Shown: positions 21,540 to 51,369 of the stretch, in pieces
Layout: every line of letters starts with the position of its first letter
Position numbering within the stretch: position 1 is the first letter of the stretch
IMG/VR virus record: IMGVR_UViG_3300005935_000016
Location: 1 to 55,295 of that record
Origin: a virus
Taxonomy: Duplodnaviria; Caudoviricetes
Length of the DNA: 55,295 bases
Reading direction: 5' to 3' (one strand)
Notes under the pieces: model-generated
What the model was told of the DNA's origin: nothing
Database searches by the model: none
What the model saw: the letters and a program-made list of their open reading frames with translations, nothing else
Position numbers and translations under genes: made by a program

Positions 21540-21542
21540 GAG

Positions 21543-23630: not shown

Positions 23631-23652
23631 CTGGTAATGTTTATAATCATAT

Positions 23653-23811: not shown

Positions 23812-23812
23812 A

Positions 23813-24043: not shown

Positions 24044-24044
24044 A

Positions 24045-24677: not shown

Positions 24678-24781
24678 TACAATACGAGTTAAATACAAGC
24701 CCATACAGACATTCTTTTCTTTTTTATATATATAACCATAGCTTAAAATATATTGTCTTAAATGACACAGGATTAACCACA

Positions 24782-26561: not shown

Positions 26562-26584
26562 TTTATAGCCTCCTGTGTATTTTT

Positions 26585-26628
26585 GTATAGTAATAACTAT
26601 ACTTTGTTATTTATAAACTTTATTATTT
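26585..26628 (-). promoter_or_regulatory. BRE+TATA promoter and inverted repeat of the S-layer-like gene
   Basis: Minus strand AATAATAAAGTTTATAAATAACA; palindrome GTATAGT-N4-ACTATAC at 26585-26602. Confidence 0.65.
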
Positions 26629-26645
26629 ATAAAAATTATATAATT

Positions 26646-26855
26646 TTAGTACAGTTTTATTGCACTACTTGTTTTCATTCTTAATAAGACATTTCCAACG
26701 ATCATTACGATACTAAATATTTGTAATGCTACGCCTGAAAGTAATCCTGAATCGATTAATGCGGTTGCTACTGTTGCGATTGCAGCTAAAACATTAAACC
26801 AAAACGTCCAACTTTCCCATATCTTTTTAACTATAACTTCTTCTTTTTTTGCCAT
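26646..26855 (-). CDS. Holin-like 2-TM protein
   Basis: Two hydrophobic helices, basic C-tail, lysis-cassette position. Confidence 0.65.
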   Translation of the reverse strand: MAKKEEVIVKKIWESWTFWFNVLAAIATVATALIDSGLLSGVALQIFSIVMIVGNVLLRMKTSSAIKLY

Positions 26856-26868
26856 TATTATTCCTCCA

Positions 26869-27111
26869 TCATATTACTGATTGAATTATTACAACCACAA
26901 CGGATGTGAACACTGCTGTTACGACACCAGTAGTGCCGATAATTTTAGCTAATTTTAAACTATTAGTTTTAATTTCCCGTTCGTGTTCTGCAACTTTACC
27001 GTTAAGTTGTTTTAGATGTTCACCAATGTTTTTCATTTCATTCTTAATAACTGCGACATCTGTCGTCAAGTTTATTAACATATCTTTGTTTGTCATTCCA
27101 CTGTTTCTCAT
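26869..27111 (-). CDS. XhlA/holin-like coiled coil with C-terminal TM helix
   Basis: HLKQLNGKVAEHE coil, then a hydrophobic C-terminus. Confidence 0.6.
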   Translation of the reverse strand: MRNSGMTNKDMLINLTTDVAVIKNEMKNIGEHLKQLNGKVAEHEREIKTNSLKLAKIIGTTGVVTAVFTSVVVVIIQSVI

Positions 27112-27123
27112 TTTTTGCGTCTC

Positions 27124-27873
27124 CTATATTAAAGTACTTTTTTGTGCCCACGAATATTCGTTGTTAAACGTCCACCAGATATCTTTATATTTTTTCATAT
27201 CATTGTGTGGGACTTTTTTAAATGATTTCACACTTTCATTATACCAATAACACCAATCTAATACATACCATTGATCGTCATCGGCTAAATAAATTACATA
27301 TGCGTGACCGACTTGTTTCTTTTTGTTACTTGGATTCTCAACGAAACCACAACATACCTTTACCCGGTAACTCGGTACACCAGCAATCAACATCATACTA
27401 GCTAACAATAATGCACCATCTTCACAATCGCCCTTTTTAGTTTGATAAGTTTCTTCTGGTGTTTGCCAATATTCTGCCTGTTTATGAGTAACGAAATCGC
27501 CAACATATGTTAAACGTTTTTTAACGTATTTTAACATACCTAACGCGGTATCGTCGTGTGTTTGTTTTTGTTTACTTTTAGACAATTTGTCTAATATATG
27601 TGATTTGTTAAATATTAAATTTCTTACATCTGCAGTTAACTTGCTTGAAACACTGTATGTAATACTATTCTTTTTCCATTTATTATTCCAATCATTAGCA
27701 ATTTTTTCTAGTTGTGTTTTACTAGTTAAAACCAGTAATTCACTGACAAGTTTACTATTTTCGCTAGACAACTTTTCAACTTCTAATAATGAATCATCAT
27801 ATAACTGTTGTTCTTCATCGAACACCAAATCGTAAATCGTTTGTTTTATTTTATGTATTAAGAGTTGTTTCAT
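27124..27873 (-). CDS. Transglutaminase-like cysteine protease, putative lysin
   Basis: EYWQTP..GDCEDGA, GHAY, VLD catalytic triad; next to holin-like genes. Confidence 0.8.
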   Translation of the reverse strand: MKQLLIHKIKQTIYDLVFDEEQQLYDDSLLEVEKLSSENSKLVSELLVLTSKTQLEKIANDWNNKWKKNSITYSVSSKLTADVRNLIFNKSHILDKLSKSKQKQTHDDTALGMLKYVKKRLTYVGDFVTHKQAEYWQTPEETYQTKKGDCEDGALLLASMMLIAGVPSYRVKVCCGFVENPSNKKKQVGHAYVIYLADDDQWYVLDWCYWYNESVKSFKKVPHNDMKKYKDIWWTFNNEYSWAQKSTLI

Positions 27874-27874
27874 T

Positions 27875-28936
27875 TTATTTGTTACTCGTGTCTATGTTGT
27901 ACACGTACCCCATGCACGAAAAACCTTCGTCTGCTGGCGTTGTCACGACTATTTTCCATGATGCACTTGTGCCAGTCGTCGAAAAATAATGTGGTCGTTC
28001 TAGTACAGAAGTCTCGAAGTCACTATCGTTCGCGCTAAGGCTAAGAGTCATGTTAGTGTATGCTGAATTAGTATACCCAGTCGTAATGTTTGGAAAAAAC
28101 AATGCTGAGTATGCTGTGTCAGTGTTAACCAACGTTTGTCCAGTTACTTGTATTGTACCAGTTACTCCGCCACCTTGAACATACCGTACTTCTAACACCT
28201 GCATTGAAGCCGTTTGTGCTGCACCAACATTAGTTTGTACTCCAATAAAATATGTTGCACCAAGTCCCGACAAGTCTACTGCGCCAGACCAAGCTGACCA
28301 TTCTGTTCCTGCAGTCGAAAATGAACGATAGTATGCGTTCTCTGTTGCTGCATCATAATAAATTTCGTATAATGTGTTAGAAGTTACACTTGAGAATATT
28401 GTGCTATAAGACGACGGTCCATCTGCTGCGATAATTCTTCCAGTACCGCCAGATGTTGTTACTGTCCCAACATGAATGAATACTGTACAATCTCCGTCAG
28501 TTAACTTGAAATCTGTTACTGAACCATCAGAAAATACTGTATTGTTTGCACTACCAACTGCCGGCAAAGCTTCAGAAGATATCGTTAATATTCCACCACT
28601 TACAGTAGTAGTGTTTGATCCATCTGATACAGCAGCTTGTGAATTTGTCCACAACGTTGTATCTAATGCAACGCCAGGGAATGTGTCATACAAGTTTGCA
28701 ATGTATGTTACACCATAATCTGAACCGGCATTGACAGAATCTCCACTATCATAATCTTCTGAACCGTTTCTTACTAAAATTGAATATTGTCCACTTTCTT
28801 CTCTATCAGACTCTGCGTCAATTAACCATTTTAAAGCAACACCTCTAAAGTTAGATCCTATAGTATCTAAAATCCTGTCTATGTCCGCGGCATAAAATAT
28901 TTCGCCGTCAGTTTTTGGTAAATCTCCAGCAGCCAT
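27875..28936 (-). CDS. Tail fibre / receptor-binding-like virion protein
   Basis: N-terminal DGEIFYAAD anchor-like motif; S/T/G-rich beta content; position after tail tip genes. Confidence 0.55.
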   Translation of the reverse strand: MAAGDLPKTDGEIFYAADIDRILDTIGSNFRGVALKWLIDAESDREESGQYSILVRNGSEDYDSGDSVNAGSDYGVTYIANLYDTFPGVALDTTLWTNSQAAVSDGSNTTTVSGGILTISSEALPAVGSANNTVFSDGSVTDFKLTDGDCTVFIHVGTVTTSGGTGRIIAADGPSSYSTIFSSVTSNTLYEIYYDAATENAYYRSFSTAGTEWSAWSGAVDLSGLGATYFIGVQTNVGAAQTASMQVLEVRYVQGGGVTGTIQVTGQTLVNTDTAYSALFFPNITTGYTNSAYTNMTLSLSANDSDFETSVLERPHYFSTTGTSASWKIVVTTPADEGFSCMGYVYNIDTSNK

Positions 28937-31131: not shown

Positions 31132-33027
31132 TTAGTATGAAATCATCGTGCTAAGTTTTGATTGTAATGCTTCTGCCACTACGTCTGCGTCTAACCCGTT
31201 GACATTTTCAATTTGTACCATCACACTCATACCACTTAAATCACTCTGGTTTGGTTCTGATAATTGAAAATTGTCTGGAGATGTTTGTAAAAGTTGTTCA
31301 GTATCGCCACCTTGTAATAAATTGCCCGCTTGTTGTACCATCACACTCATACCACTTAAATCACTCTGGTTTGGTTCTAATAATTGAAAATTGTCTGGAG
31401 TTGTTTGTAAAAGTTGTTCAGTATCGCCACCTTGTAATAAATTGCCCGCTTGTTGACCAAGACCACTCATGCCGAGTGTCGCCACATTAAGACTTGTTGC
31501 TGGTATTGATTCTGAAAAAGTACCAAGAAAACTGTCAGATAACATATCGTTTATGTCTTTAATAATATCATAAACGTCTGTTAAAGCATCGGAAACGATT
31601 GCTAATGCATCTGCTAATAAAACAAATAAAGATAAAATATCTTCTAAATATCCACTTTCTATTAAAATGTTCACCATTCCCACAAAACTTTCTAGTATAT
31701 TTCCAGTAAATGTTGCCATGTTAGAAAACAATGATGTAATATCGTCCTTATTATCAATCAAAAAATTAAACATTTTTTCAGTAGTTTCTTTTAATAACTC
31801 CCAATCCAACTCTTCAACAAATGTTGTAGCAGTATCAGTCACTGTTTGTAATGCCCCTGCAAATGTATCCATTAATCCAGTGAATACTTCACTTTCAGTT
31901 ATTGTATTTATAAGAGTTTGAAATTTTTCAGTCAATGGGGTAATTACTGGTAATAACTCAGTAAGAATAGAATCACCAATGTCAGTCATTGCGCTTCCAA
32001 TTGTATTCTTCATTTGGTTAAACAAATTTTCCGATGTCCCAGACATAATTTCGAATTGTGATTGTGCCATACCAGTCGAATCTGAAACACTTTCTATAGA
32101 TGCCGCAACGTCGTCGGACGCCGCTCCTAAAAGTGGTAATACAGCTCTTAATGCTTCTTCAGAATTAAACAATTTAGCCAATGATTCTGTGTCGTCACCA
32201 ACAACATCGGCCAATGATTCTAATGTTCCAACAAGACCCAATTCTTCAATTGCTGCTTGTCCAGATTCAAAGCCTAGAAATTCTAACGCCTCTTGCATTT
32301 CTTTAGTCGGCTTAATTAATTTAGTAAGTGTAGAATTTAATGCAGTTGCTGCTTGTTCGGGACTTGCCATTACTTTAGTCAATCCAGCGAAAATTCCCGC
32401 TGTTTCTTCTAATGAAACTCCCATCTCACCAGCACTAGCAGAAACTCTTGGGAATGCACTAGCCAGTTGATCCATCGTAGTTTGACCCGCAGCTACTGTT
32501 GCTGCGAATACATCAAATACTCTACCAGAATCTTCAGCCTCTATACCGAACGCAGCCATAGTTTTTGTACTTGCTTCGATAACAGAAGATAATTCAGCTG
32601 AACCACCTATAGATGCTTTAGTCGCTTCTTCTAAAAATGCAGTAGCTGTTGCAGTATCTGTAATACCAGCGGAAACAGTTTGATACAAACCAGCAGCCGC
32701 TTCTAACTCTCCACCGGCTAATCCAAATTCAGATGCTAAACTCTGTGTCGAGTTAGCTAATGCTTCCATGTCTTCATCAGTTCCGACTAGCAATGTTTCT
32801 ACATTAGACATCGATGTTTCAAAACTAGCAGCACTTTTCACTGCTTCGACTCCGAATATGGTTGCTGCAACACCGACAGCGGCAAATGCAGTTCCAACAG
32901 ATAATGCAGCGGTTGAAAAACTTTTCATACTCGATTCTGCTGAATTAAAAGTAGAACTAAAGTTATCGACAGCGTTGATTAAAATATTAACACTAGCAGC
33001 TCCACCAAATGCACCTAAACTTACCAT
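31132..33027 (-). CDS. Tail tape measure protein (TP901-like core)
   Basis: Ala-rich helical, INAVDNFS start, ALNSTL..LIKP; downstream of the tail chaperone. Confidence 0.9.
   Translation of the reverse strand: MVSLGAFGGAASVNILINAVDNFSSTFNSAESSMKSFSTAALSVGTAFAAVGVAATIFGVEAVKSAASFETSMSNVETLLVGTDEDMEALANSTQSLASEFGLAGGELEAAAGLYQTVSAGITDTATATAFLEEATKASIGGSAELSSVIEASTKTMAAFGIEAEDSGRVFDVFAATVAAGQTTMDQLASAFPRVSASAGEMGVSLEETAGIFAGLTKVMASPEQAATALNSTLTKLIKPTKEMQEALEFLGFESGQAAIEELGLVGTLESLADVVGDDTESLAKLFNSEEALRAVLPLLGAASDDVAASIESVSDSTGMAQSQFEIMSGTSENLFNQMKNTIGSAMTDIGDSILTELLPVITPLTEKFQTLINTITESEVFTGLMDTFAGALQTVTDTATTFVEELDWELLKETTEKMFNFLIDNKDDITSLFSNMATFTGNILESFVGMVNILIESGYLEDILSLFVLLADALAIVSDALTDVYDIIKDINDMLSDSFLGTFSESIPATSLNVATLGMSGLGQQAGNLLQGGDTEQLLQTTPDNFQLLEPNQSDLSGMSVMVQQAGNLLQGGDTEQLLQTSPDNFQLSEPNQSDLSGMSVMVQIENVNGLDADVVAEALQSKLSTMISY
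31213..31455. repeat. 120-bp tandem duplication in the tape measure C-terminus
   Basis: Two copies differing at only 31259/31379 and 31281/31401; encodes a 40-aa repeat. Confidence 0.95.
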
Positions 33028-33642: not shown

Positions 33643-34644
33643 TTACCAAGCGTTGTATTGCTCAGTAGTATCTGCAACAACCACGCTCGCAGTTTGCGGA
33701 ATGATTGTTATTGTTTGTTCGTTTACACCTTCAATCGGTGTTGGTGAACTCATATCGTCTAATACACAACCGCTTAAACTCATAAGCATGCTAGCACTTC
33801 CAGCTCTTGCTGTGTCGTTAACTTCGAATAATACGTTGAACTTGCTACCAGTTAAGAAATATGTGTTATACAATGTTTGTGTCCATTCAGTGGACTCATC
33901 TAATGTTAAAGACAACTCGTAATCTCGTGTTGTTGGTATTGGTAACTCGATAACTTGACTTCCATTTAGATAATGTCTAGCAACTAAGTTGTTGTTAACT
34001 GTAAGACTAACATCTTTAAGTCCATCAATTGTATTTCCTGATTCTAAGTGAACTTTGAAATCTTGCCATTTATACGGTCTACTAGTATCTTGTGTGATTG
34101 CGGTTCTTTCTCCTGATCCAGCTGTTACATTTTGTGCGATGTAATTAACTTCAACAGTAGCCATTTCTCCTTCTGCAGAACTCACAGAAAAACTGTCTAC
34201 CATACAACCTACCACTGTTCTTACAAAATTATTACTACCGGGTTGTGGTCCCATGTGAGAATCTTCGATTGTAAAACTCGTAAAAGGATTCTTTGTTCCA
34301 CTTGTTGCATAATTTCCGTTATCTGAATTAACTTCGCTAATCACGTGTGAATAGGGTGAAGGTGATCCAGCATCAACATTACTTCCTAAAGCAAATGCTA
34401 AAAATTTCCAATCTTGTGGATATATCGATAACGTTCCCGTTACGTCTTTTGTACTATTTTCGAATTGCGAGACATTCCTATCCCCAGTTCCTGTATATCT
34501 AATTCTTTCTTTAGTTACAGTTTCGTCAACCTCGTGGTTTTGTACCAAACCAGGCCAATGCAATGTAGTCCCTAAGGTACTTGCGTATGTTCCAGATTCA
34601 TAAAAGAATCCTACATAATTTTGATCACTAATCATATATGCCAT
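33643..34644 (-). CDS. Tail tube (major tail) protein
   Basis: SFTIE..GCMVDSFSVS..SLTVNNNL pattern; position; followed by an oligo-T terminator. Confidence 0.8.
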   Translation of the reverse strand: MAYMISDQNYVGFFYESGTYASTLGTTLHWPGLVQNHEVDETVTKERIRYTGTGDRNVSQFENSTKDVTGTLSIYPQDWKFLAFALGSNVDAGSPSPYSHVISEVNSDNGNYATSGTKNPFTSFTIEDSHMGPQPGSNNFVRTVVGCMVDSFSVSSAEGEMATVEVNYIAQNVTAGSGERTAITQDTSRPYKWQDFKVHLESGNTIDGLKDVSLTVNNNLVARHYLNGSQVIELPIPTTRDYELSLTLDESTEWTQTLYNTYFLTGSKFNVLFEVNDTARAGSASMLMSLSGCVLDDMSSPTPIEGVNEQTITIIPQTASVVVADTTEQYNAW

Positions 34645-35202: not shown

Positions 35203-35583
35203 TTATAACGCAGATTTAATCTCGTCTTCGATAAATTCTTTAACTTTAGATTCTTCTCGATTCGCGGTGTTACCAAAATGACTTCTTGCTGTAATCTTAG
35301 ACGTACCAAACTCTAAATATACGGCATAATCTAATGGAGAAAAAACTTGAGCACTTAAATCATCAGATTCACTTCGTATAGAATTTTGGAACCGACCAGT
35401 GTCGACCGATTTTGGTTCTGCTCGACGACCAGCAATACTTTCGACAACTTCGCTTTCGATAAATAATGCAGCTTTAGTTATAGCAGTTTGAGCCGCCTTT
35501 AACGCTTCAGAACTAGATTTTGCTAATTTAGAAATCGCTTGACTTTCGCCCTCGATTTCAATGCTAAAAGAATTTTTAGCCAT
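35203..35583 (-). CDS. HK97 gp10-like neck/tail-completion protein
   Basis: VDTGRFQNSI and YAVYLEFGT. Confidence 0.85.
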   Translation of the reverse strand: MAKNSFSIEIEGESQAISKLAKSSSEALKAAQTAITKAALFIESEVVESIAGRRAEPKSVDTGRFQNSIRSESDDLSAQVFSPLDYAVYLEFGTSKITARSHFGNTANREESKVKEFIEDEIKSAL

Positions 35584-36416: not shown

Positions 36417-36716
36417 TTAAATATATTTAGCCGAAGATAGACGACCCAATATTTCCTTTTTAGTATCTCTCTCGATATTGTACTCGATGTCGATATTATT
36501 ATCTACCATCCAAGCTTTGATTTCTTTTTCTTTCCAACTTAGCTCTGGTATAATAGAAAATTTTGTTTTACTTTTAACTTGTGGTTTTGTTTCTTCGATA
36601 TTATCTAAATATCTACCCAGTCCAGATTCAACTAACTTTTTAGCATCATGTTCATTCAGATATTCGATTCGATGAGGTCCATGTGACCCAGTGTATTCAA
36701 TTCTAACTTTTTTCAT
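36417..36716 (-). CDS. Small protein with C-terminal HeH/LEM-like motif
   Basis: WKEKEIKAWM..NIDI..TKKEIL. Confidence 0.5.
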   Translation of the reverse strand: MKKVRIEYTGSHGPHRIEYLNEHDAKKLVESGLGRYLDNIEETKPQVKSKTKFSIIPELSWKEKEIKAWMVDNNIDIEYNIERDTKKEILGRLSSAKYI

Positions 36717-36717
36717 T

Positions 36718-39615
36718 TTATCTTCTCCTATTTTGTATGGTTTCTGCCCATGTATATGACCGACTGCTATCGTATAGCCAACCAGTTGATGTGTTTAATT
36801 CTGACGTTAAAGATTTAGCTGGATAAGCAGGATCTCTTTTTGAACTAGAGTTAGTATCAAAGTATATTACAAACCATTTTGTCGAGTTAACTACTAAATC
36901 AGTTACTGTCTTCCACACGTATTGTACAGAATCAGTTGTTGTCTCTTTATAGTATCCAAATTCTATTAAGTTTACTACTGGCGTTTCGATTGCAGTATCA
37001 CTCATTAACAAACACTGTGCCTGTACATATCTAGATTCGTTTAAATTAGTTAACGTTGTGTTTTGATAATAATATGATGACCAGTTGTAAAATGATGTAA
37101 CCTCGTTTTGTGATAACGATCTATTGTATATAGCAACTTCGTCGATAGTACCATTAAACTGATCGATAATGTGATCACCAGTATTAAAGTGTCTAGCTCC
37201 AATAAAAAATCCAGTGGTTGATGAAACAAATCCAGCGTGCCAAGTTTCACTATCTTCTAAATTACCATTCACATACATAAGAACATCAGTTCCATTATAT
37301 GTCGCCAACACGTTATACCAACTAGTGTTGAGTATTTCAGTACGACCATTCAAAAATGTAGATCGATCTGTACCATTTCCTATTCTAAAATCTAAAAGAT
37401 TATTATCCCTAATTCTAAAATAAAATCCATCGTAAGTAACATCTGGAATACCAACTGCGATGATTGATTGATACGAGTCAGACTCGGATTTTTTAATCCA
37501 TGCTGATACTGTAAAATCTCCTGATATATTTAATGCAGGGTCTGTAATATTTATCATTCCATTATCTAAATCGAATGCTGACGCATTTTCGCCACTAAAT
37601 ACTCCGTATGTCGAATTAGGACATATCACACAAGTTCCATTAAAATTTCCTTGTTCATCTACAAATATATTGTAAGTTTCTCCAAGAGTAGCATTATTAT
37701 TTAATTTATAATATGATACTAATGATGTATCTGTAATATTAGGTCTTAACAAATCCGCGTTTCGTATTCTACAACTAAAATTACTCGGTTTATATATTGT
37801 TGACGTAAATATTCTTCGATATTCTACGAAATTTACACTAGGTCCAGCATCTATGATAGACGTTGTAAAATTACCGACTGTCGCGAACAGACCAAAATCA
37901 AATATTTCTTTTACGTTTGTTGGTGATAATGTACGATTCCATAAAGCGACTTCGTCGATTGACCCGTTAATTGATACGGTCGGTGACGAAACATAAAAAA
38001 CATTAGATGATTTTAATACTGTAGAACTATTTAATAACGAAGTACCAACCAATGAGCCATCGTAATAAGCCGACAAATATGTGTCATTCGTACTAACACA
38101 TACATGATGCCACTTGTAATCAAAATTTGATCTGCTAGGAACACTAAATGAATATGTAGAATCTGCAGTCCCATATAAATCGTAGTCTTCATATCTAACT
38201 ATATAATTTATATCTTCTGTATCATAATTATAATCAATATGTCTAAATCCATAAGCACCAGACGTGATAACTCTTGGATACATTAAGGTTGAATTACCAA
38301 CGATATAAAACCATGCACAAGTTGTAACATTATAACCACCGGTTTTGTTTATTTCACTAGCCCCGACAACAGTTAAAGAATCATCATCATTATCAAAATC
38401 ATATCTTTCGTGTACATGTATTATATTAGCAGATGGAGTTAAATCATAACCATTACCGCTAGTGTCTTTTGCATCCTTAGTAAATGGATAATTTGCAACT
38501 AGTCCAAAATTTAAAATATTAGTAGTGTTAAAATGTACATTTACGAACTCGATAGTGTCATCTGATGATATGTTATATGATTCGTACAACGAATTTAAAT
38601 CCGCAGTAATTGTAAATACAGTAGAATGAAATCCAGTCTTATATTGACCAGTGTTAATATCGAATTCAATTACAGATTCTGTTGATGGATCATAATATTT
38701 TATGTCGTCAACAGAGCCGATGTCATTATAATTATATATCGGTACACCACGTTGTGATAAGACAGATTGTTCTGCTGTTGATAATGATAGTTTTTCAATA
38801 GATTCTGTTGTCAATGGTTCACAAATTAACTGTACTTTATCGTTAAAAACAAATTCGCAATTATCTTCTTTTTCGTATACGTTTATAACGTAATATCCTA
38901 AAATACCCCCAGTTGGTATGATATATGTGTCTAAAATTGATTGTTCGGAAATAGAAGTTTTTTCTATATCTACCCCATCATCTAATTCGATGACAGGATC
39001 GATGTCTATATTACCATATTGTGGTTTGTAAGTATAATAAATTTTTCCGTTATATTGAGTAACGTAATTTAATTTTTCGATGTCAGTAGAGTAATCGAAA
39101 ATTAACCAACCATCTTGTATTGATGTGATGTTAGTTTTCTCTTGATTGACAGAATATATAGTTCCTTCATTCGTTACATCTAACTCTGTGTTTTTGTTAC
39201 GTAAATAACATTTAGAGTCTTGATCTTCGGGTGTCCAAGTAACACTGTCTTTAATACCAGACGATGTAATTACTAAACTACGTGTTAAATTTCCCTTTGA
39301 ATAATAAATGTCTTGTGAGATAATATATTTGTTATCTTCTTCTTCGTAGTGTATCTCACTATATTTTGTACCACGTTGTTTATACACAGTTTTATAACGA
39401 CTGTCTGACAAACAATATGGTTGCCATACACTTTCGCCGAGGTTTGAATAACCTTGTTTTATTTTTAACATTCCGTCATTAAAATATAAATCATAATCTT
39501 TACTTAATTCGTTTGGTATAGTAATTAATGCAGTGTCCTGTGTTATATATATTCCCATACCGCCAAACACGATAAGCGCAATTAATGCGTAATTAATAAT
39601 ATCTTCTTTTTTCAT
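36718..39615 (-). CDS. Membrane-targeted protein with two LamG/ConA-like domains
   Basis: N-terminal hydrophobic helix; WHHVCV..NGSIDEVALWNRTLS and FTVSAWIK..NGTIDEVAIYNRSLS; many N-x-S/T sequons. Confidence 0.8.
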   Translation of the reverse strand: MKKEDIINYALIALIVFGGMGIYITQDTALITIPNELSKDYDLYFNDGMLKIKQGYSNLGESVWQPYCLSDSRYKTVYKQRGTKYSEIHYEEEDNKYIISQDIYYSKGNLTRSLVITSSGIKDSVTWTPEDQDSKCYLRNKNTELDVTNEGTIYSVNQEKTNITSIQDGWLIFDYSTDIEKLNYVTQYNGKIYYTYKPQYGNIDIDPVIELDDGVDIEKTSISEQSILDTYIIPTGGILGYYVINVYEKEDNCEFVFNDKVQLICEPLTTESIEKLSLSTAEQSVLSQRGVPIYNYNDIGSVDDIKYYDPSTESVIEFDINTGQYKTGFHSTVFTITADLNSLYESYNISSDDTIEFVNVHFNTTNILNFGLVANYPFTKDAKDTSGNGYDLTPSANIIHVHERYDFDNDDDSLTVVGASEINKTGGYNVTTCAWFYIVGNSTLMYPRVITSGAYGFRHIDYNYDTEDINYIVRYEDYDLYGTADSTYSFSVPSRSNFDYKWHHVCVSTNDTYLSAYYDGSLVGTSLLNSSTVLKSSNVFYVSSPTVSINGSIDEVALWNRTLSPTNVKEIFDFGLFATVGNFTTSIIDAGPSVNFVEYRRIFTSTIYKPSNFSCRIRNADLLRPNITDTSLVSYYKLNNNATLGETYNIFVDEQGNFNGTCVICPNSTYGVFSGENASAFDLDNGMINITDPALNISGDFTVSAWIKKSESDSYQSIIAVGIPDVTYDGFYFRIRDNNLLDFRIGNGTDRSTFLNGRTEILNTSWYNVLATYNGTDVLMYVNGNLEDSETWHAGFVSSTTGFFIGARHFNTGDHIIDQFNGTIDEVAIYNRSLSQNEVTSFYNWSSYYYQNTTLTNLNESRYVQAQCLLMSDTAIETPVVNLIEFGYYKETTTDSVQYVWKTVTDLVVNSTKWFVIYFDTNSSSKRDPAYPAKSLTSELNTSTGWLYDSSRSYTWAETIQNRRR

Positions 39616-39616
39616 T

Positions 39617-41395
39617 TTATATACCTATCAACTCTGTAATATCTGCAGATTCATATGGCAATGCGTAACATTGATTGTTTACATAATCTACAACGCCTGA
39701 CGCGTTTAAACATTGTCCGTATTGGTTTACTTCATAAACTCTAATCGAATTTTGGTCGACATAGACCTTATCTGATTTACTAGAGTCGTATAATTGTAGT
39801 ACATCATCAGCCGACAATGTTTTATTAAGTATAATTAAACTATCAACTGTTCCGTTCATTGAATTATAAGCAGTAATATATATTTGAGTTTTGCCTAAAT
39901 TTATTGCACCGTCAACAAAACCTGATGCGACTTCGTCTACACCATCATAATATATCGTTGCATTTTTGTCTGTTTTATTATAAGTTAAACAAGTAAAATG
40001 CCAATCCCTGTCTGTATAATTTCCTAAACCATAGTTACCTATCACTATATTAGAATTATTTTCTGTATCAATTCTAGCGTATATTTGATTAGTGTCGTGA
40101 ATACCAGTAAAATGTAATCTAAATCGTCCTAAAGACCCGTTTCCAAGAGTAGATAATGATTCGTAATCTGTATATTCGTCTTCTTCTAATTTAGACCAAA
40201 TACACATCGAGATGTTATCATTCGACAAATCTAAATCTGATACAGCAGAATGCAAATACGAGTTATACCCGTCACAATAAACACCTTTTAAAATCTTCCC
40301 ATCATATACCCAATCAGTGTTAAAATCTGTCAGTGTATTATCGCCAACGATATCGTCAGTTTGACTTTCTTCGAATGGGTAATACGAAATAATATTATCT
40401 TCCATCCCAGATAAATCGTAATTTTGTGGACCAAGACCCAACTCTAAAAACTCTGTATCCCAATCGATAGTGTGATTAAATACTGGGATCGTCCAATTTC
40501 TTGGTCTATATGAATTATAAACATAAGTAATTTCTTCATCTGTCAATGATCTATTCCATATCATAAATTCGTCAACTGACCCGTTAAAATCGTTAACTTG
40601 ATTACCGTTAGCTAATAAACCGCCAATTAATATTTTAGCGTTTGAATCAAAAACCTGAGTTACTGTTTGGTTTAACACTGTTGTCACATCTTCCTGTTCA
40701 CCGTCTATATACATTTTAAAACTGCCATTATTAAACACGAAACCGATATGATGCCACTCGTCGTCTCCAACATCTGTTGTCGATCTAAATAGTTTTTGAG
40801 CTCCGATTGTTCCAGTTTGTTGAACTCTCATGTCTAATTTTGAAGGGACATTCCTAGAATATACCATATGCCATGAACGTTGATTGTTACCGAAATCGAA
40901 ATGTGAAACTGGACTACCGCCAGACTGAGACGGTCCTTTTGTCCATGCAAATACACTTAATTGTGTTCTGTTGTAACCAGTCTCTGGATAATCGGGAATA
41001 GTAATATAATCATTTTTTCCATCCACGAGATAACAGTCTTGTATTTTACAAGCCTCATACGAACCAGAAAACTCTGTTCCGTCGTGAGTAGAAATACTAT
41101 CTTCAGCGTTATTTTCTAAACGATACCATGCTGTTAAGCCATCGTAAACACTAGAAGTAGAAATAATTGGTGCTCTTTCATAATTTTCAATGCTAAATAT
41201 TGTGGCGAATGTCCACGTTTCGTTTTCTAATGCATCATGAACTATTGACCACGAGGGTATAGTCGACAATCCAATGTTTCTAATCGAATCAGAAATTGGA
41301 AAGCCAGAAATTATACTAATAACTAATAAAAGCAAAATAAGTATGCTTAATAAAATACAAAAAATTTTTTTGTTAACTTGTTTCATTTTATGCAA
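39617..41395 (-). CDS. Secreted/membrane-targeted protein with two LamG/ConA-like domains
   Basis: KK plus long hydrophobic N-terminal helix; WHHIGFVF..NGSVDEFMIWNRSL and WHFTCLTY..NGTVDSL. Confidence 0.8.
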   Translation of the reverse strand: MHKMKQVNKKIFCILLSILILLLLVISIISGFPISDSIRNIGLSTIPSWSIVHDALENETWTFATIFSIENYERAPIISTSSVYDGLTAWYRLENNAEDSISTHDGTEFSGSYEACKIQDCYLVDGKNDYITIPDYPETGYNRTQLSVFAWTKGPSQSGGSPVSHFDFGNNQRSWHMVYSRNVPSKLDMRVQQTGTIGAQKLFRSTTDVGDDEWHHIGFVFNNGSFKMYIDGEQEDVTTVLNQTVTQVFDSNAKILIGGLLANGNQVNDFNGSVDEFMIWNRSLTDEEITYVYNSYRPRNWTIPVFNHTIDWDTEFLELGLGPQNYDLSGMEDNIISYYPFEESQTDDIVGDNTLTDFNTDWVYDGKILKGVYCDGYNSYLHSAVSDLDLSNDNISMCIWSKLEEDEYTDYESLSTLGNGSLGRFRLHFTGIHDTNQIYARIDTENNSNIVIGNYGLGNYTDRDWHFTCLTYNKTDKNATIYYDGVDEVASGFVDGAINLGKTQIYITAYNSMNGTVDSLIILNKTLSADDVLQLYDSSKSDKVYVDQNSIRVYEVNQYGQCLNASGVVDYVNNQCYALPYESADITELIGI

Positions 41396-41780
41396 TTGTA
41401 TGCTTGTAAACGACTGTCACATAAATCGTATGTGTAGTAATCCCAGCTGCACAATGCAGTCTAATAGGAACAGTGCTTAAATCTGAAAAGTTGTCAAACT
41501 CGATTCGTTTAGTACTACCTAAATTAGCATAATAAAATTGTGCTTGTAATACCCCATCACTATCCTCGTGTGCGGGATCTCTCTCGTTTGCTGTACTCGC
41601 CGTAGCTTTTCGTAGTAAAGTGAATTTTGCGTCAGCGTCTGCTGCTACTGAATATACGTATAATGCCTGAACACTCCATTTAGTATCACGGTTTAGTGTT
41701 AGTGCTTGTTCATAGTCATCTGAACCGTTATAAGCTAATGAATATGTTTCTGTAAAAAGTTGATAATCTGATTGTCCCAT
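41388..41780 (-). CDS. Hypothetical structural-region protein
   Basis: GGAG RBS; beta-rich. Confidence 0.55.
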   Translation of the reverse strand: MGQSDYQLFTETYSLAYNGSDDYEQALTLNRDTKWSVQALYVYSVAADADAKFTLLRKATASTANERDPAHEDSDGVLQAQFYYANLGSTKRIEFDNFSDLSTVPIRLHCAAGITTHTIYVTVVYKHTIA

Positions 41781-41854
41781 TGTTTGTTAATCTCCGAAAT
41801 GTTTTTTGTTTAAATATATATAAAAAAATAAAAAAAAGAAAAACCCAGCTATAT

Positions 41855-42613
41855 TTATACTGGATTTCCGTCTGCTTTCCATGCAAACAGTTTTGATGGA
41901 TCTGAACTTTCTACTCCGAATGATCCAGCTTGTGTGTAAATCAAACCAAATGATGTTCCTAAAGCCCCTGATCCAGCGTTAACCGATACTATTGGTGCGT
42001 CGAAAAATGGTGTTCCGAATACTACATCTAGTTTACTTCCAGCTCCTGTTTCTCCGGTAGCTCTGAGGGTTGTAGTTTGTGTCCATGCTGTTGGACTTCC
42101 GTTGAGTGCAGTCCGTGGCATTCTGTGAACACCTGCTTCAGAAATGTTAGATCCTTGTATATCACCTGTTGAATAAACTTGAGCTCCTGAGATCATTACG
42201 TCTCCAAACACTCTACCTGCTTCTACACTTCCTGTTGCGAATACATTCAATCCTGATACATGTGTTGCTCCAATTACTGTGTCACCAGTCACGCTTGCGT
42301 TTGCGTAAACGTTGTTTCCTGATACATGTGTTGCTCCAATTACTGTGTCACCAGTCACGCTTGCGTTTGCGTAAACGTTGTTTCCTGAAACCATTACGTC
42401 TGCTACAACTTTGTCTGCTTGTACACTGCCTGCTGCGAATACATTAGTTCCGCTTATGGTTGGTGTCGTGAATGATGTTGTTGCATATATAGTTGTACCA
42501 CTAATTGTTGCTGATTGCACACTAGTTGCACCATAAACATTAGTTCCGCTAATAACCGCTGTTGAGGTTACTGCTTGATTTACTTCTTCAAATCCTAATC
42601 CGTCTGTTGTCAT
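41855..42613 (-). CDS. Head fibre/decoration-like protein with beta-repeats
   Basis: ISGTNVY-type repeats; C-terminal VVFGTPF..PIV..FAWKA lectin-like module; follows the capsid gene. Confidence 0.6.
   Translation of the reverse strand: MTTDGLGFEEVNQAVTSTAVISGTNVYGATSVQSATISGTTIYATTSFTTPTISGTNVFAAGSVQADKVVADVMVSGNNVYANASVTGDTVIGATHVSGNNVYANASVTGDTVIGATHVSGLNVFATGSVEAGRVFGDVMISGAQVYSTGDIQGSNISEAGVHRMPRTALNGSPTAWTQTTTLRATGETGAGSKLDVVFGTPFFDAPIVSVNAGSGALGTSFGLIYTQAGSFGVESSDPSKLFAWKADGNPV
42252..42388. repeat. Perfect 66-bp tandem repeat (22 aa)
   Basis: Units start at 42252, 42318 and (partial) 42384. Confidence 0.9.
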
Positions 42614-42657: not shown

Positions 42658-43509
42658 TTAAGAGGTTGTGATTTTTGCAATTGCATTTGTTCTTACTGCT
42701 TTTGCAGTAATTCTTTGTGTAATTGCTGCGCCTTTACTATCTAATAAAGGTAAATCGAAATTCTCAACAGTTAAAGGTCTTTTTTCTCCAATTACGTATG
42801 CAAATTCTCTGTCAAATACGTATGATGATGTTGTTGTCATACCAGCATTTGTTGAAACTTTATATACTTTCATACCGTAAATGTTTCCAATAAAACCTCT
42901 TGATAACATGTCGTTACTTCCAGATTTATCCACTTCTGTAAATGTGTCAATGTTTCTAATATCGTTAGCAACTTCCATTCCTAAAGCAAATGTTGTAGGA
43001 TTAAAGTCGTTATCTTCTAAATATTGCATTGCTCTTGTGATGTTTGCAATAGTAATTGCAGCTCCACCACCAATTGTATTTGCAGCTGTGTCTAATTGTG
43101 TAACAATTAGTGAGTTTTCGTTTTCAGCTAATCTTTTTCCAGCAACTCTAATGTTGTGCTGTAATAAATTAAATTGTGCGTCTTCTAATAAATCTTTAGT
43201 GATTCTAATTGAAACACCGTATTTTGCAGGTCTAATATTTATATTGGTGTAATCAACTTCATCCATTTCGATTTCGTTGTACTCTCCAAGTTGTCTAACC
43301 TGTAAACTATCTGGTGTTGCCAAGTTTAAATCCAAACTTGAAGCTGTAATCTGTGATGGACCTAAATACATCATTGCTTCACTTCGTGGAATTAAAGCTT
43401 TCTCGGTTTCCTCGATCAACATTGCGTGGATCTTCTTAGGAATCAACAGTGAACCCTCTGTACCTTTTGCAGTACTTAAAAATTCTTTAACATATTGAAA
43501 TTCTGTCAT
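42658..43509 (-). CDS. Major capsid protein (HK97 fold)
   Basis: GSLLIP, GEYNEI, KYGVSIRITKDLLED, GFIGNIYGMKV. Confidence 0.9.
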   Translation of the reverse strand: MTEFQYVKEFLSTAKGTEGSLLIPKKIHAMLIEETEKALIPRSEAMMYLGPSQITASSLDLNLATPDSLQVRQLGEYNEIEMDEVDYTNINIRPAKYGVSIRITKDLLEDAQFNLLQHNIRVAGKRLAENENSLIVTQLDTAANTIGGGAAITIANITRAMQYLEDNDFNPTTFALGMEVANDIRNIDTFTEVDKSGSNDMLSRGFIGNIYGMKVYKVSTNAGMTTTSSYVFDREFAYVIGEKRPLTVENFDLPLLDSKGAAITQRITAKAVRTNAIAKITTS

Positions 43510-47412: not shown

Positions 47413-47744
47413 TAATCACAACCCCCGTTTACATCTTCGATAAATTCTAAATGTTGTCGTTGTCTGTGAGTTCCTTTTCTTGCACCACGTGGACTTCGAT
47501 CTTCTTCAGTCTCACCATCACAAATATAAGCCTCAGAATACATTAAATCGTTTTGAATACCAGCAACTTTTAGCTGAGAAGGTCCCACTGTTCCAGAACC
47601 CGTATAATCTGTCCAATCTCCGATAGCGACCACATCTTCTTGGTCTAATGTTGGGTTTCCGCTGTGACATTGGTGACTAACATCTGAAACACCGATAGGC
47701 ACTGCATATTTTTTTCGACACCTGGGGCAAATTCTAATCGTCAT
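47412..47744 (-). CDS. Zn-finger protein
   Basis: CPRC..HQC. Confidence 0.6.
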   Translation of the reverse strand: MTIRICPRCRKKYAVPIGVSDVSHQCHSGNPTLDQEDVVAIGDWTDYTGSGTVGPSQLKVAGIQNDLMYSEAYICDGETEEDRSPRGARKGTHRQRQHLEFIEDVNGGCD

Positions 47745-49720
47745 TTTTTGCTAAGACCTTCGATAATCGGGACGAATCTACATCGACACTGTGGGTGAAT
47801 TGGAAGTACACCACTAGCATCTTTAATCTCGTAAACCATTCCATTCATTGGCCCGCAAATATCACACGTTCTTTCAGACAATGCTGACACCCATCGAACT
47901 TTTTCTACGTCTCTTTTTTCATAAACTTTTAAAGCACCGTTGTTGCTCAATCGAACAACTTCAGTCCTTGCAATCATAATTGGTCTAAACTTTTTAGACA
48001 ACTGTGTTTTAGGGTTTCCATCTGCATCTAAATCTAAATCGCCTTCTTTATTCATCTTTAACAAATCTGCCGGTTTAACTTCTCGTTCGATTTGTTTAGC
48101 AATTTCGTTCATTGACCAGTTGTTAGTAATACCATCATTTAAAACTACTCTCAATGAATCAATTTGTACAGTTGATAATTTTCCAGCACTTGCTTCGATT
48201 AAATTTTTCGCCCTAACCAAATCAAACCCGTCCTTTTTAATTGAATCTAAAATTTCTTCAGTATAATCTAAATAATTGAAATTTACAAACTCGGAAATCG
48301 TGAAATCTTTTGCATCATCAAACTGGTCAAAAGCTCCACCCTCGTGAACATGACATCCACATAATTGTTCTTGTCGAACCTGTGTCGGTACGATAGGTTG
48401 TCGTTCTTCTTGTTCTCTGGCCCTTTCTTCTTCTGGAGCTTCTTCAAAACTTACACCTATTAACTCACCCACAACTTTTTCAATCTCGATTCTTAATCTA
48501 AGATCTAAATCAGTTATTTTTAAAATTTCTACTAACCTAGTTAATCTAGCATTCTTTTCTGACGTTGATGGTAATCCCCAAACAAACTCTGCGTCTGCAT
48601 CAGCAAAACCGTTAACTTCTAATATTTGTTTAAATATTTGTTCTTCGATAACTTTTTCTAATTCTTCTTGTAAACTTGAAACTCGTCTTTCGAATGCATC
48701 TAATTGTACATCGGCTAAACCTTCCGATACGTTACCATCACCCAATAAAACTTCGGGTACTTGCACTGTAGTGAAAAACATTCTCCAGTTGTCTGCTAAC
48801 ACCGGTTCAAACTTTTCTGATATTTTACCGTAATCGATAACGCTTAACTCAACAAATGGACCAGTTGCGAACTCGGTCTTGTTGTTCATATATTCTAATT
48901 CTTGGCCAAACGTGTTAACATCGTCTTCAGTCGGCTCAATAGGGTCTCCATCTGCTCCCTTTCCACCCAACTTCGCCCATAATGGAGAATTTGCTTTTCG
49001 TTTTATCAACGTAAACATATCTTTTCTTGTACTGAGAATGTTATCAACGATAGGAAGTGTACAATTTACAATACCTTGTCCGTATGGACTAGTACCAACC
49101 CTGTTAATATCAAATACAGCGACTTCAGCAACATCAAATTTAATTGGATCTTCTTGTTTAGTTCCGATCACCTGACAATATCCAACTACCTTACCTTTAT
49201 TATCTTGTCTAATAAAAAACGTAGTCGGTTCAATAATCTTATATTCTTTTACGTCGCCCTCTTTATTTTTACCAATTTCTAAACCCACTGTGCCCGTAAT
49301 TAAGGCTGTTGTGATAACGTTGTCTAACACAGAATGAAATTGTGTGTCTTTCATATGTTTGTTAAGAAGGGCTGAAACACGTTCGTCTTTTGAGGTGACA
49401 TGAAAACCTGGACCCAGAATAAAATCTGTGTATTTATCAACAACAGCCTTAATAGGACCGAAAGATTTGTATAAAGCGAGAACTTGATCGTAATCAAACG
49501 GATGTTCACGAAGATCTTTACATTTTTTTGATGCTTGAGTAAAAGGAGTTTCGACTTCGTTTAATTGAGATTTAAACTCTTCTTCAACAATCTGTTTGTC
49601 TCGTTCTTTTTTGTTATAAATTATTTTGTATCTGCTTTTGTTTGTAACCGGAATTGCAGTTTTCCGCGTTTTAGAATCTCTAGATATTATATTAGAGAGA
49701 AATGATTTGTTTTTAGCCAT
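47741..49720 (-). CDS. Portal protein fused to MuF/SPP1 gp7-like head morphogenesis domain
   Basis: Portal features (YGQG, QVPEVLLG) after TerL; C-terminal IARTE..TCDIC..PIHPQCRC. Confidence 0.85.
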   Translation of the reverse strand: MAKNKSFLSNIISRDSKTRKTAIPVTNKSRYKIIYNKKERDKQIVEEEFKSQLNEVETPFTQASKKCKDLREHPFDYDQVLALYKSFGPIKAVVDKYTDFILGPGFHVTSKDERVSALLNKHMKDTQFHSVLDNVITTALITGTVGLEIGKNKEGDVKEYKIIEPTTFFIRQDNKGKVVGYCQVIGTKQEDPIKFDVAEVAVFDINRVGTSPYGQGIVNCTLPIVDNILSTRKDMFTLIKRKANSPLWAKLGGKGADGDPIEPTEDDVNTFGQELEYMNNKTEFATGPFVELSVIDYGKISEKFEPVLADNWRMFFTTVQVPEVLLGDGNVSEGLADVQLDAFERRVSSLQEELEKVIEEQIFKQILEVNGFADADAEFVWGLPSTSEKNARLTRLVEILKITDLDLRLRIEIEKVVGELIGVSFEEAPEEERAREQEERQPIVPTQVRQEQLCGCHVHEGGAFDQFDDAKDFTISEFVNFNYLDYTEEILDSIKKDGFDLVRAKNLIEASAGKLSTVQIDSLRVVLNDGITNNWSMNEIAKQIEREVKPADLLKMNKEGDLDLDADGNPKTQLSKKFRPIMIARTEVVRLSNNGALKVYEKRDVEKVRWVSALSERTCDICGPMNGMVYEIKDASGVLPIHPQCRCRFVPIIEGLSKK

Positions 49721-49857: not shown

Positions 49858-51369
49858 TTACCTTATTGCAAATCTACCAGAACTAGACTTTCGCCGTTCT
49901 TTCATTTTGGTAATACCCAAACAAGCTAATGCTAATGAATCACAAAAATCGTCGTGATAACCAGCACCTTCAGGGTGGTGACATTTCCATATGTCTCCCT
50001 TGACCTCAACCTGGAAATCCATCATCTGTCTAATGAACCTTTCTTTTTCGGGACTTTGTTTTTTTGGTATTTTTAATTTTGGTTCTTCGATAACTTCACC
50101 TTTAAAAATCACTGGGTGTAATAACGAGTGTAAACTTTTAAACATAAAATCTTTACCTTGTGAACTCATATTATATCCGATAATCTGAACCGGTAATCCC
50201 TTGCATCGTTGTCTAAGCATACTAACTCCCATGTCTTGGTTTCCAGTACTATCACACCAGATTTTACGCAATGAACTGTTGTATTTATTGTTGATAATAT
50301 CATAAATCTCTTCTACCTGAGACGCATAATCAACACCGCTGATTTCTTTCCACATGATTATTCGACCATCTGCGTCAATAACCGTGAACACTGTTGAATC
50401 GTATTGTTTACCCCAATCAATCCCGCCATATAGTTCATAAGCTCTACCATAAGTATCGAACACTTCATACTCAGTCTCTAAATCTATCAATTTCTTATAT
50501 TCGATAAACTGTCCCTTACCCAATACCCAGATTAGCTTGTATTGAACCTTGTACGCATCCGAATCTTCACTAAGGTTAAGCTCTCGCAATTCCTTATCGA
50601 TAGACTTTTGATAATTCTGATAAATAGTATCACCAGTTTTTTTGAACATTTCATCTCGTTCTTTGATTGTAACATCTACTGGAGAAACAACTTTAAAATC
50701 TTCGGGCAATGTTTCTAACATCTCCCAGAATCTACAACGCTTATAACCAGCAGTCCCGATATACAATTTGGTCGCACGTGTGTGCATACCCATGGGTGCG
50801 ATAGTGTTATCAATAACATCGTCTAACAACTTTTGTGCTTCTTCTAAAATTATTAAATTCAGCGTTTTAGATTCTGTATTAGAAGTTGATGATGCTGAGA
50901 AGCAATAAATCTGTATTGGAATATGCCCAGGTGTTTCTAATAACAATGAATTACCGTTTGCTTCGGATACTTTAAACCCATAACCTTGTTCCATTAAATC
51001 TTTCAAGTAACGTTTAATTCTATCGAAATCTGTTTTACTCTGTTGATACTGTGGAGCAAAAATTCCAATATTAAAAAATCCGGTGTTGGGTAAATTAAAC
51101 TTCTTAACTATCACCGAATAAAACATCGCAATATAAAGTACAGATATGACAAGAGATTCTGTCTTGCCACTCTGTCGGCTGAACTCTGCCGCTAGTGTCC
51201 AACCCTCGTTATTTACTACACTCTCGATTAGCTTATTTGAAAATCGCTGCTGTGATCTAAACAAACGTTTACCGAAATGTGTAAAACTGAATGCGTCTCT
51301 TGTCTTAAAAATCTTTTTTAATTGTTCTTCGTCTAATTTTGTGTTCTTATCTATTACTATTTCTGTCAT
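49858..51369 (-). CDS. terL: Terminase large subunit
   Basis: SRQSGKTE, LIILEEAQ, GTAG, GIDWGKQYD, HDDFCDS. Confidence 0.93.
   Translation of the reverse strand: MTEIVIDKNTKLDEEQLKKIFKTRDAFSFTHFGKRLFRSQQRFSNKLIESVVNNEGWTLAAEFSRQSGKTESLVISVLYIAMFYSVIVKKFNLPNTGFFNIGIFAPQYQQSKTDFDRIKRYLKDLMEQGYGFKVSEANGNSLLLETPGHIPIQIYCFSASSTSNTESKTLNLIILEEAQKLLDDVIDNTIAPMGMHTRATKLYIGTAGYKRCRFWEMLETLPEDFKVVSPVDVTIKERDEMFKKTGDTIYQNYQKSIDKELRELNLSEDSDAYKVQYKLIWVLGKGQFIEYKKLIDLETEYEVFDTYGRAYELYGGIDWGKQYDSTVFTVIDADGRIIMWKEISGVDYASQVEEIYDIINNKYNSSLRKIWCDSTGNQDMGVSMLRQRCKGLPVQIIGYNMSSQGKDFMFKSLHSLLHPVIFKGEVIEEPKLKIPKKQSPEKERFIRQMMDFQVEVKGDIWKCHHPEGAGYHDDFCDSLALACLGITKMKERRKSSSGRFAIR

Follow-up and report, generated by a model that had tools for sequence, protein, structure and literature searches.

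Why would a head-tail virus encode, among the genes for its own particle, proteins that begin like exported ones and are dense in sites for N-glycosylation? The question is raised by two adjacent genes in a 55,295-base viral genome, the complete IMG/VR record IMGVR_UViG_3300005935_000016 (completeness estimate 92%), which was analysed at full length and is called the window here. Its head-tail structural module lies on the minus strand from ~24.9 kb to 51.4 kb and includes the genes of two LamG proteins, P0001 (36718-39615, minus strand; 965 amino acids from an ATG start) and P0002 (39617-41395, minus strand; 592 amino acids from a TTG start). Assembly of tailed virus particles is assumed to take place entirely in the cytoplasm, and no host-recognition protein of a tailed virus is known to be routed through the secretory pathway. 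Both LamG proteins carry an export-type N-terminus together with a specific excess of glycosylation sequons, and the same pairing recurs in related viruses. They may be displayed on the surface of the infected cell.

Domains, N-termini and sequons of the two proteins

P0001 and P0002 belong to the Laminin_G_3/concanavalin-A-like lectin-glucanase superfamily, as judged by profile matches over the gathering score. Laminin_G_3 (Pfam PF13385) scored 132.7 bits in P0001 and 111.1 bits in P0002, against a curated cut-off of 27.6, with two stretches in each protein. This confirmed the domain named in a preliminary description of the window, which had also placed the two minus-strand genes at their exact coordinates. 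In P0001, the best Pfam stretch is the second domain (residues 686-839; 37099-37560, minus strand), the region aligned by most of the 150 matches listed in the library search. The first LamG-like domain covers approximately residues 400-575 (37891-38418, minus strand), with limits taken from a BLAST alignment with a 1157-residue protein of the related locus L009 (residues 405-572). In P0002, the best Pfam stretch is the first domain (residues 125-289; 40529-41023, minus strand), and a second LamG-like domain probably spans residues ~340-540 (39776-40378, minus strand), to go by BLAST against P0001 and the same 1157-residue protein. PHROG matches over residues 125-289 of P0002 comprise a virion structural protein and others, all LamG-based; for the two proteins together, the LamG-based PHROG matches include a virion structural protein and a tail fibre. 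Pfam and PHROG detected no catalytic family in P0001 or P0002. A word-index homologue search with the 592-residue P0002 returned six matches only.

Signal calls were made from hydropathy and from reading the sequence. Both proteins show lysine ahead of ~20 hydrophobic residues, and this stretch is the single hydrophobic window in each, with no further span. The best Kyte-Doolittle mean over 19 residues is 2.09 at residue 6 of P0001 and 3.47 at residue 11 of P0002 (3.55 over 15 residues), in agreement with the basic-hydrophobic signal/anchor described earlier for both starts. The predicted signal/anchor of P0002 occupies residues 11-30 in TTG numbering (41306-41365, minus strand) and consists of a basic n-region and ~20 hydrophobic residues ending in the small-residue triplet I-S-G. 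A likelier start of this gene is an ATG at 41386, 9 nucleotides (nt) inside the TTG and 1 nt past the stop of the upstream gene. P0001 opens with a base module (38971-39615, minus strand) made of a predicted signal-anchor helix (residues ~6-25) and a sequon-poor, beta-rich domain of ~185 residues ending in I-D-P. By eye, the only candidate signal-peptidase sites in the two proteins are I-S-G or G-M-G, after long cores, and they are doubtful; cleavage of the P0002 signal is uncertain. Many relatives, also by eye, end the signal in A-x-A-like triplets with small residues at -3 and -1. P0001 contains 10 cysteines and P0002 contains 8, and many members of the family have a cysteine pair near the C-terminus (a Cys-loop-Cys end), as in extracellular proteins.

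Structure prediction added little. AlphaFold2 models of whole P0001 (10-row alignment; mean predicted local distance difference test (pLDDT) 53.5, predicted template-modelling score (pTM) 0.33) and of its residues 1-370 (13-row alignment; pLDDT 48.4, pTM 0.35) were too poor for a fold search, and the low-confidence model places a helix at residues 3-27. ESM Atlas gave no usable feature match for residues 25-370, with structure rows reaching template-modelling scores of only 0.23-0.31.

Sequons were defined as N-x-S/T with x other than P, and the expectation was obtained from 500 composition-preserving shuffles. P0001 holds 31 sequons where 15.1 are expected (z 4.6) and P0002 holds 17 where 7.8 are expected (z 3.6, with 3.6-3.9 over runs), close to the ~30 and 16 counted by hand in the preliminary description. 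Within P0001 they are unevenly placed: residues 1-340 hold 2 of them, and the other 29 lie in residues 348-941. The remaining 59 of the window's 61 open reading frames (ORFs) all stayed below a z of 2 (maximum 1.7 in the first run, 1.9 in a re-run). Control motifs were flat in P0001 and P0002, respectively: [ST]-x-N gave z of -1.0 and -1.4, Q-x-[ST] -0.8 and 0.5, D-x-[ST] -0.3 and -0.6, and N-x-[AG] 0.3 and 0.0. We conclude that the excess is directional and specific to N-x-S/T.

An export-type N-terminus was found in one other ORF among the 61. This very acidic protein of 538 residues (24945-26561, minus strand), the last gene of the tail module, carries an I-S-G-C lipobox and is a predicted lipoprotein; neither Pfam nor PHROG gave a match. 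It contains 0 sequons where ~4 are expected. The same virus thus encodes, besides two sequon-full exported proteins, one that seemingly avoids N-glycosylation sites.

Signals, sequons and base modules in related viruses

A capsid-protein profile search of viral contigs yielded 94 relatives, of which 80 were kept, and a census of the lineage covered 88 related loci with 567 genes of at least 150 residues and intact N-termini. Twenty-five of these genes have a signal-like N-terminus. Their pooled observed/expected sequon ratio is 2.22, and 14 of the 25 reach a z of at least 3. The remaining 542 genes have a pooled ratio of 1.02 with only two at that level, so that signal and sequon excess are tightly associated over the 88 loci (Fisher p 1.5e-19). 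In the two exceptions, the N-terminus is hydrophobic but falls slightly below the signal threshold. The N-termini of the relatives read as classical signal peptides, with a basic start, a hydrophobic core and small residues at -3 and -1.

Neither the signal nor the fold accounts for the excess. Signal-bearing proteins of two cellular metagenome-assembled genomes (MAGs), passed through the same pipeline, gave ratios of 0.77 (a DPANN MAG, 33 genes) and 1.07 (a MAG of the candidate phyla radiation, CPR), which shows that a signal does not in itself create the excess. The first value also led us to reject, for that one DPANN MAG, the idea that dense sequons copy the secretome of the host. A LamG-bearing tail protein of the large relative G810 lacks a signal and holds 7 sequons where 6.3 are expected; the excess therefore tracks export and not the fold. 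Asp or Glu stood at position -2 of 34 of 431 sequons (7.9%), compared with a background of 9.9%. An acidic residue at -2 is the rule of bacterial PglB-type enzymes and not of archaeal ones, and the absence of such a preference thus fits the archaeal rather than the bacterial rule.

The distribution of the oligosaccharyltransferase STT3/AglB points the same way. Related capsid genes in genome collections gave six matches, in MAGs labelled Woesearchaeota and Pacearchaeota and in four bacterial-labelled MAGs. STT3/AglB was present in both DPANN-labelled MAGs holding the related capsid gene; it was not found in the three bacterial-labelled MAGs searched, nor in the virus. In the phylum of the Pacearchaeota-labelled MAG, 182 of 201 genomes contained it over the cut-off, whereas in the phylum of the Saccharibacteria-labelled MAG it was marginal, in short ORFs of ~500 residues, in 6 of 201. 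The capsid profile itself matched 7 of 401 genomes in the former phylum, with distant relatives within large chromosomal contigs of 6 further genomes, and in the latter only the centre genome among 401.

All of this fits translocated proteins in which selection favours sites that an oligosaccharyltransferase of the archaeal type would use. From the lineage statistics, the motif controls and the enzyme's distribution, we consider it very probable that the proteins are exported and N-glycosylated outside the cytoplasm. That step, proposed in the preliminary description, is strongly supported. The interpretation as a whole is partly supported. Of the two functions suggested there, display on the infected cell and addition to virions during egress, either may apply, and the DPANN host that it assumed is likely rather than demonstrated.

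The genes recur at two places in the structural operon. Slot 1, the one used in the window, is a variable interval between the capsid gene (with a conserved head-fibre-like gene) and a conserved connector gene. Here the HK97-type capsid gene (42658-43509, minus strand) and two small genes precede P0002 and P0001; downstream, at gaps of 1-9 nt, follow a gene for 99 residues, a connector-region gene kept in 62 related loci, and the Neck1/tail-completion, tail tube and tape measure genes, as expected from the earlier placement of the pair inside the head-neck operon. Approximately 10 loci carry one to three signal-peptide genes in this slot, with sequon z of 3.8-6.4, and most loci are empty. Slot 2, seen in relatives, directly follows the tape measure and a small gene and precedes a baseplate-like gene. 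It holds an anchored protein of ~340-360 residues and then a signal-peptide giant, or both fused. A conserved small partner gene 5' of the exported genes was considered and rejected, the small genes belonging to several unrelated families.

The ~200 N-terminal residues of the anchored slot 2 proteins align with one another, and hhalign matched this module to the base module that P0001 shares with three full-length relatives (probability 90.4%, E 1.4e-6, 169 columns). P0001 is therefore a member of a modular family, with an anchor and a base domain followed by exchangeable sugar-binding ends. The three full-length relatives, P0010, P0011 and P0032 (the last labelled Candidatus Iainarchaeum), keep the base module, the basic n-region with its hydrophobic core, and the sequon excess (z 5.3, 5.1 and 4.3). 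In place of LamG, the C-terminal part of P0011 has an S-P-D-N-G-T-T-W stretch, which we take by eye to be a BNR/Asp-box motif of the sialidase type. Other ends in the family gave weak Ig-like and CarboxypepD_reg matches.

The preliminary description had asked whether the nearest homologues would be cellular DPANN surface proteins or viral fibres, and the nearest relatives proved to be of the kind expected for display on the cell. At the level of LamG, the best matches are giant proteins, mostly with the same sequon excess; the base module matches viral exported proteins. Seven giants of 4163-7662 residues top the library match list, with up to 26 aligned stretches. Their observed/expected sequon ratios lie at 1.86-2.19 in six of the seven, while the Verrucomicrobia-labelled seventh has 1.39. 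These archaeal LamG-repeat surface proteins resemble P0001 and P0002 in domain and in a two-fold excess, yet they are cellular, far larger and without the viral base module, and the identity is ~30% over LamG domains only, with one near the top labelled Verrucomicrobia. A LamG match labelled Nanoarchaeia was also among the library matches. Two of the LamG-repeat giants, P0013 and P0014, have ~7000 residues and a two-fold sequon excess; their N-termini presumably resemble archaeal pilin-type (class III) signals.

A whole-record census of five large relatives found six exported sequon-rich proteins in G806, five in G807 and three in G808. No exported sequon-rich protein was found in G809 or G810, nor in proviruses that are distant relatives in DPANN chromosomes. 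The six proteins of G806 (L167-L169) add up to ~3358 residues and ~22% of its 45-kb record, compared with ~8% of the window genome, and two of them are paralogous giants whose N-terminal halves are 40% identical. The largest protein of the census, with 2060 residues, is encoded in G807 (record 21913-28095; L171:1913-8095, minus strand), directly after the tape measure and an anchored base protein of 339 residues. It has a signal peptide, one LamG domain and 136 sequons where 53 are expected (z 13.5). Provirus regions of G165, G214 and G088 (L159-L164) contain a gene of ~560 residues whose start looks like that of a putative reverse transcriptase.

Proposed surface display and competing explanations

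We favour, with about even confidence, display on the surface of the infected cell, where the proteins would bind glycans for adhesion or receptor masking. The Sec pathway would carry both proteins out of the cytoplasm of the infected archaeon, most likely a member of the DPANN, and they would stay tethered by the N-terminal signal anchor or be freed by cleavage. On the outer face of the membrane, host AglB would glycosylate them densely, and each would present two LamG (concanavalin-A-like) carbohydrate-binding domains. Expressed late, they would cover the infected cell and bind glycans at its surface, with two plausible uses, attaching the cell to its neighbours or masking the receptor for the virus on the dying cell and on debris from it. 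The glycan may be provided or modified by enzymes of the virus, encoded by its dehydratase, sulfotransferase, methyltransferase and glycosyltransferase genes. The two proteins would then be part of a lineage-wide set of exported, sequon-dense proteins, many of which share the anchored base module and have changeable distal domains. Many members of the family are anchored, and the closest relatives are cellular surface proteins, as display would have it. The lack of such proteins in G809 and G810 marks them as accessory, which fits a surface-modifying role better than an essential part of the virion.

Several observations weigh against this account. The position in a structural operon, spaced at 1-9 nt, is that expected of virion fibres or receptor-binding proteins, and the second slot of the relatives lies between the tape-measure and baseplate genes. 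The N-terminal module is constant, the distal domains change and paralogues occur. The coding share is large for mere surface decoration, and late expression fits adhesion for metabolite supply poorly. As to the host, the secretome of the DPANN MAG was not enriched in sequons, so that dense sequons are not simply a host habit. Four of the six capsid-gene matches lie in bacterial-labelled MAGs, one of them Saccharibacteria (CPR), and the Pacearchaeota-labelled contig is purely viral. The virus encodes a PolyA_pol-type nucleotidyltransferase, which we take to be the bacterial type of CCA-adding enzyme. Its closest cultured terminases, at 26-29% identity, are those of bacterial phages, along with a partial match to Halogranum tailed virus 1. 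The best matches of its GDP-mannose dehydratase (52-59% identity) are scattered over many phyla and give no clue to the host. On balance, the sequence evidence makes an archaeal host very likely and a DPANN host likely. The host assignment is the weakest link of the account.

The objections from gene order and modularity lead to the strongest competitor, which we regard as unlikely though serious: virion fibres that mature outside the cytoplasm. Such fibres would be exported, receive N-glycans and remain in the membrane or beneath the S-layer until lysis, when heads or necks would take them up. In the relatives, the proteins encoded past the tape measure would be acquired by tail tips, and virion assembly would be partly extracellular. 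The genes do lie among head, neck and tail-tip genes, and they resemble those of siphovirus receptor-binding, head-fibre and neck-collar proteins with carbohydrate-binding modules in operon place, in a constant N-terminal part and in exchangeable ends (LamG, the presumed BNR-like end of P0011, and the weak Ig-like and CarboxypepD_reg matches), the usual layout of a receptor-binding protein. The G806 paralogues with their similar N-terminal halves, the large coding investment and the PHROG matches to a virion structural protein and a tail fibre agree with this. Most signal-peptide forms lack a second anchor and would be free after cleavage. A haloarchaeal tailed virus provides a further parallel, with faint glycostain bands and an attachment protein containing nine sequons, but deletion of aglB left that virus unaffected in the experiments described in PMC10384203.

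What sets P0001 and P0002 apart from siphovirus fibres is their signal and their sequon excess. Tail fibres are assembled in the cytoplasm without an export signal, whereas both proteins start with an export-type hydrophobic segment. To our knowledge, no export signal has been described for siphovirus receptor-binding, head-fibre or neck proteins, which are assembled in the cytoplasm; no tailed virus is known to incorporate Sec-exported parts, and a literature search turned up none. Release from the membrane would be needed for anchored forms, the small genes ahead yielded no docking partner, and G809 and G810 manage without any such protein. The full chain, in which a head-tail virus exports fibres through Sec, the host N-glycosylates them and the base module fastens them to heads, necks or tail tips outside the cytoplasm in a glycosylation-dependent manner, is doubtful; if it holds, the glycans may be tailored by the sugar genes of the virus.

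It is improbable that P0001 and P0002 are conventional head fibres or neck whiskers made in the cytoplasm, with the N-terminus serving as a capsid or oligomerisation anchor and the sequons idle or glycosylated there by viral glycosyltransferases. The genes stand where head fibres and collar proteins are encoded, several glycosyltransferases are present in the virus and in all five large relatives, and viral enzymes glycosylate virions in the cytoplasm in mycobacteriophages and chloroviruses. Against this, the N-termini of the relatives are textbook cleavable signal peptides, and the sequon excess is tied to signals and absent from all other structural proteins, including the likely head fibre and the LamG-bearing tail protein. 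Pfam matches of the window include no cytoplasmic N-glycosyltransferase of the GT41/HMW1C type, and the cysteine pairs suggest an oxidising location.

Still less probable is a role as egress or lysis helpers, lectin-like proteins that would be exported to attach to the inner side of the glycosylated S-layer, or to weaken it from there, shortly before lysis. Signal-anchored endolysins wait in the bacterial membrane, and the signal-anchor topology, the late co-expression with structural genes, the glucanases in the superfamily named by PF13385 and the stretch of P0011 that we take for a sialidase-type BNR motif could be read in this way. Neither protein, however, has a catalytic family, their sizes, diversity and number per genome far exceed those of known lysis proteins, and a transglutaminase-like protease of the tail module (27124-27873, minus strand) is the better lysin candidate.

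Finally, a bacterial host without protein N-glycosylation, e.g. a CPR bacterium, with a sequon excess that arises as a side effect of a different constraint acting on beta-rich secreted proteins, is highly improbable: the bacterial-labelled capsid matches, the lipobox protein and the PolyA_pol-type enzyme speak for it, as do LamG proteins of CPR phages noted in PMC11310336, but reversed and look-alike triplets show no excess, the signal-bearing proteins of the CPR MAG show none either, the capsid profile was found in the Saccharibacteria-labelled phylum in one genome of 401 against 7 of 401 in the DPANN-labelled one, and a provirus in a DPANN chromosome (G237) likewise encodes a lipobox protein.

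The idea that LamG proteins of such viruses are adhesins is already published. In a groundwater virome, Concanavalin/LamG proteins and glycosyltransferases of CPR and DPANN viruses were proposed to help symbionts adhere to free-living cells, with Altiarchaeota and EX4484-52 named as DPANN virus hosts (PMC11310336). The window virus likewise combines LamG proteins with glycosyltransferases, and the adhesion idea is the same; the accessible portions of that study make no mention of signal peptides, sequons, an anchored base module or a position in the structural operon. These features, with the selected sequons, the two operon slots and the scale of investment, appear to be new, although overlap with supplementary catalogues is possible.

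Two other groups of viral proteins invite comparison. T5 Llp, Cor, Ltp and lambda Lom/Bor are phage membrane proteins or lipoproteins that act in exclusion or receptor masking. Like the proteins discussed here, they are virus-encoded, exported and active at the surface of the infected cell, some of them encoded beside structural or receptor-binding genes; unlike them, they are small, unglycosylated, often expressed early or from prophages, and without lectin domains. P0001 and P0002 have no lipobox, in contrast to the phage exclusion lipoproteins, and the lipobox protein of the window has 538 residues. Enveloped or lipid-containing archaeal viruses, as summarised in the available text of PMC10384203, have N-glycosylated structural proteins (pleolipovirus spikes, fusellovirus proteins) that rely on host N-glycosylation and serve contact with the host. 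Those viruses possess membranes and bud, whereas the window virus is of the head-tail type, with an HK97-type capsid, a tail tube and a tape measure.

Should the two LamG proteins remain on the cell, they would offer a testable molecular basis for viruses of ultrasmall symbionts reshaping host surfaces, and the remodelling proteins would themselves be glycoproteins. Their inclusion in the virion would amount to a new way for tailed viruses to assemble. The combination of signal and sequons is also a cheap marker, readable from sequence alone, for contigs of archaeal viruses and for genes acting at the surface.

Other features of the window

Sugar genes are numerous on the plus strand. A sulfotransferase and a GDP-mannose 4,6-dehydratase lie at 6124-8168 (Pfam Sulfotransfer_3, E 1.3e-9; GDP_Man_Dehyd, 429.6 bits), and a glycan block at 16094-23527 encodes, by Pfam, GT1, a B12-radical SAM enzyme, GT2, two methyltransferases, GT2 and GT4. 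The toolkit thus comprises the sulfotransferase, the dehydratase, four glycosyltransferases, the B12-radical SAM enzyme and two methyltransferases. GT1 and GT2 genes occur in all five large relatives (G806-G810), with or without exported proteins, and the sugar toolkit looks like a hallmark of the lineage. Its link to the sequon-rich proteins, as glycan-building partners, is suggestive only.

The structural module runs on the minus strand from the large terminase (49858-51369, PHROG) through a portal fused to a Mu-F-like domain (47741-49720, Pfam) to the capsid gene, recognised by Pfam and PHROG. Downstream of P0001, the gene for 99 residues (36417-36716) starts 1 nt after the P0001 stop and has relatives in 9 related loci. 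The Neck1/tail-completion protein lies at 35203-35583 and the tape measure at 31132-33027, and Pfam Phage_tube_2 identifies the tail tube (33643-34644). Relatives of a 510-residue tail-tip gene, also on the minus strand, match YqbQ-like baseplate proteins. The protease at 27124-27873 (Pfam Transglut_core, DUF553), at the tail end of the module, is also kept in G807 and is a candidate envelope-degrading enzyme or lysin.

Between the capsid gene and P0002 stand the two small genes. The first (41855-42613, minus strand) has a conserved N-terminal motif and a variable remainder, and genes of the same type follow the capsid gene in most related loci. Its product has neither a signal nor a sequon excess; cytoplasmic assembly, as a head fibre or a decoration protein, is probable. 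The second (41388-41780, minus strand; 130 residues) overlaps or abuts the start of P0002 and is the first gene of the transcription unit. It had no Pfam match, a single PHROG match at E 0.0065, and no relative in the 88 loci by BLAST or phmmer. Read directly, the intergenic stretch ahead of it (41781-41854, minus strand) contains a T-tract, then a TATA-like A/T box, then GGAG ~12 nt ahead of the ATG, and may act as terminator and promoter. Similar T-tracts stand 5' of other genes in the window. Such an arrangement recalls a moron with its own promoter and terminator, yet the unit carries on through the connector genes, at spacings of 1-9 nt. A sigma-70 promoter scan of the window was at background (51 found; 42.2 +/- 8.0 in shuffles), while terminator-like sites in the same scan exceeded the shuffles (12 against 3.2 +/- 1.9). 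Shine-Dalgarno-like motifs precede 33 of the 61 genes, which does not separate archaea from bacteria. No tRNA genes were found in the window and no archaeal small-subunit rRNA in the record.

On the plus strand, the virus encodes a family-B DNA polymerase, DNA methylases, an RNA ligase and the PolyA_pol-type nucleotidyltransferase. The RNA ligase is followed by the nucleotidyltransferase, which is seemingly split, in the region 3180-6127: the head domain lies at 4335-4748 and the RNA-binding and HD part at 5435-6127, with an Asn-rich ORF of 167 residues between them (4948-5451). The region may be a tRNA-repair module broken by an insertion. A C5 cytosine DNA methylase is also in two pieces on the plus strand, at 9174-9701 (profile positions 1-165) and 10102-10836 (positions 227-323), on either side of an ORF of 142 residues.

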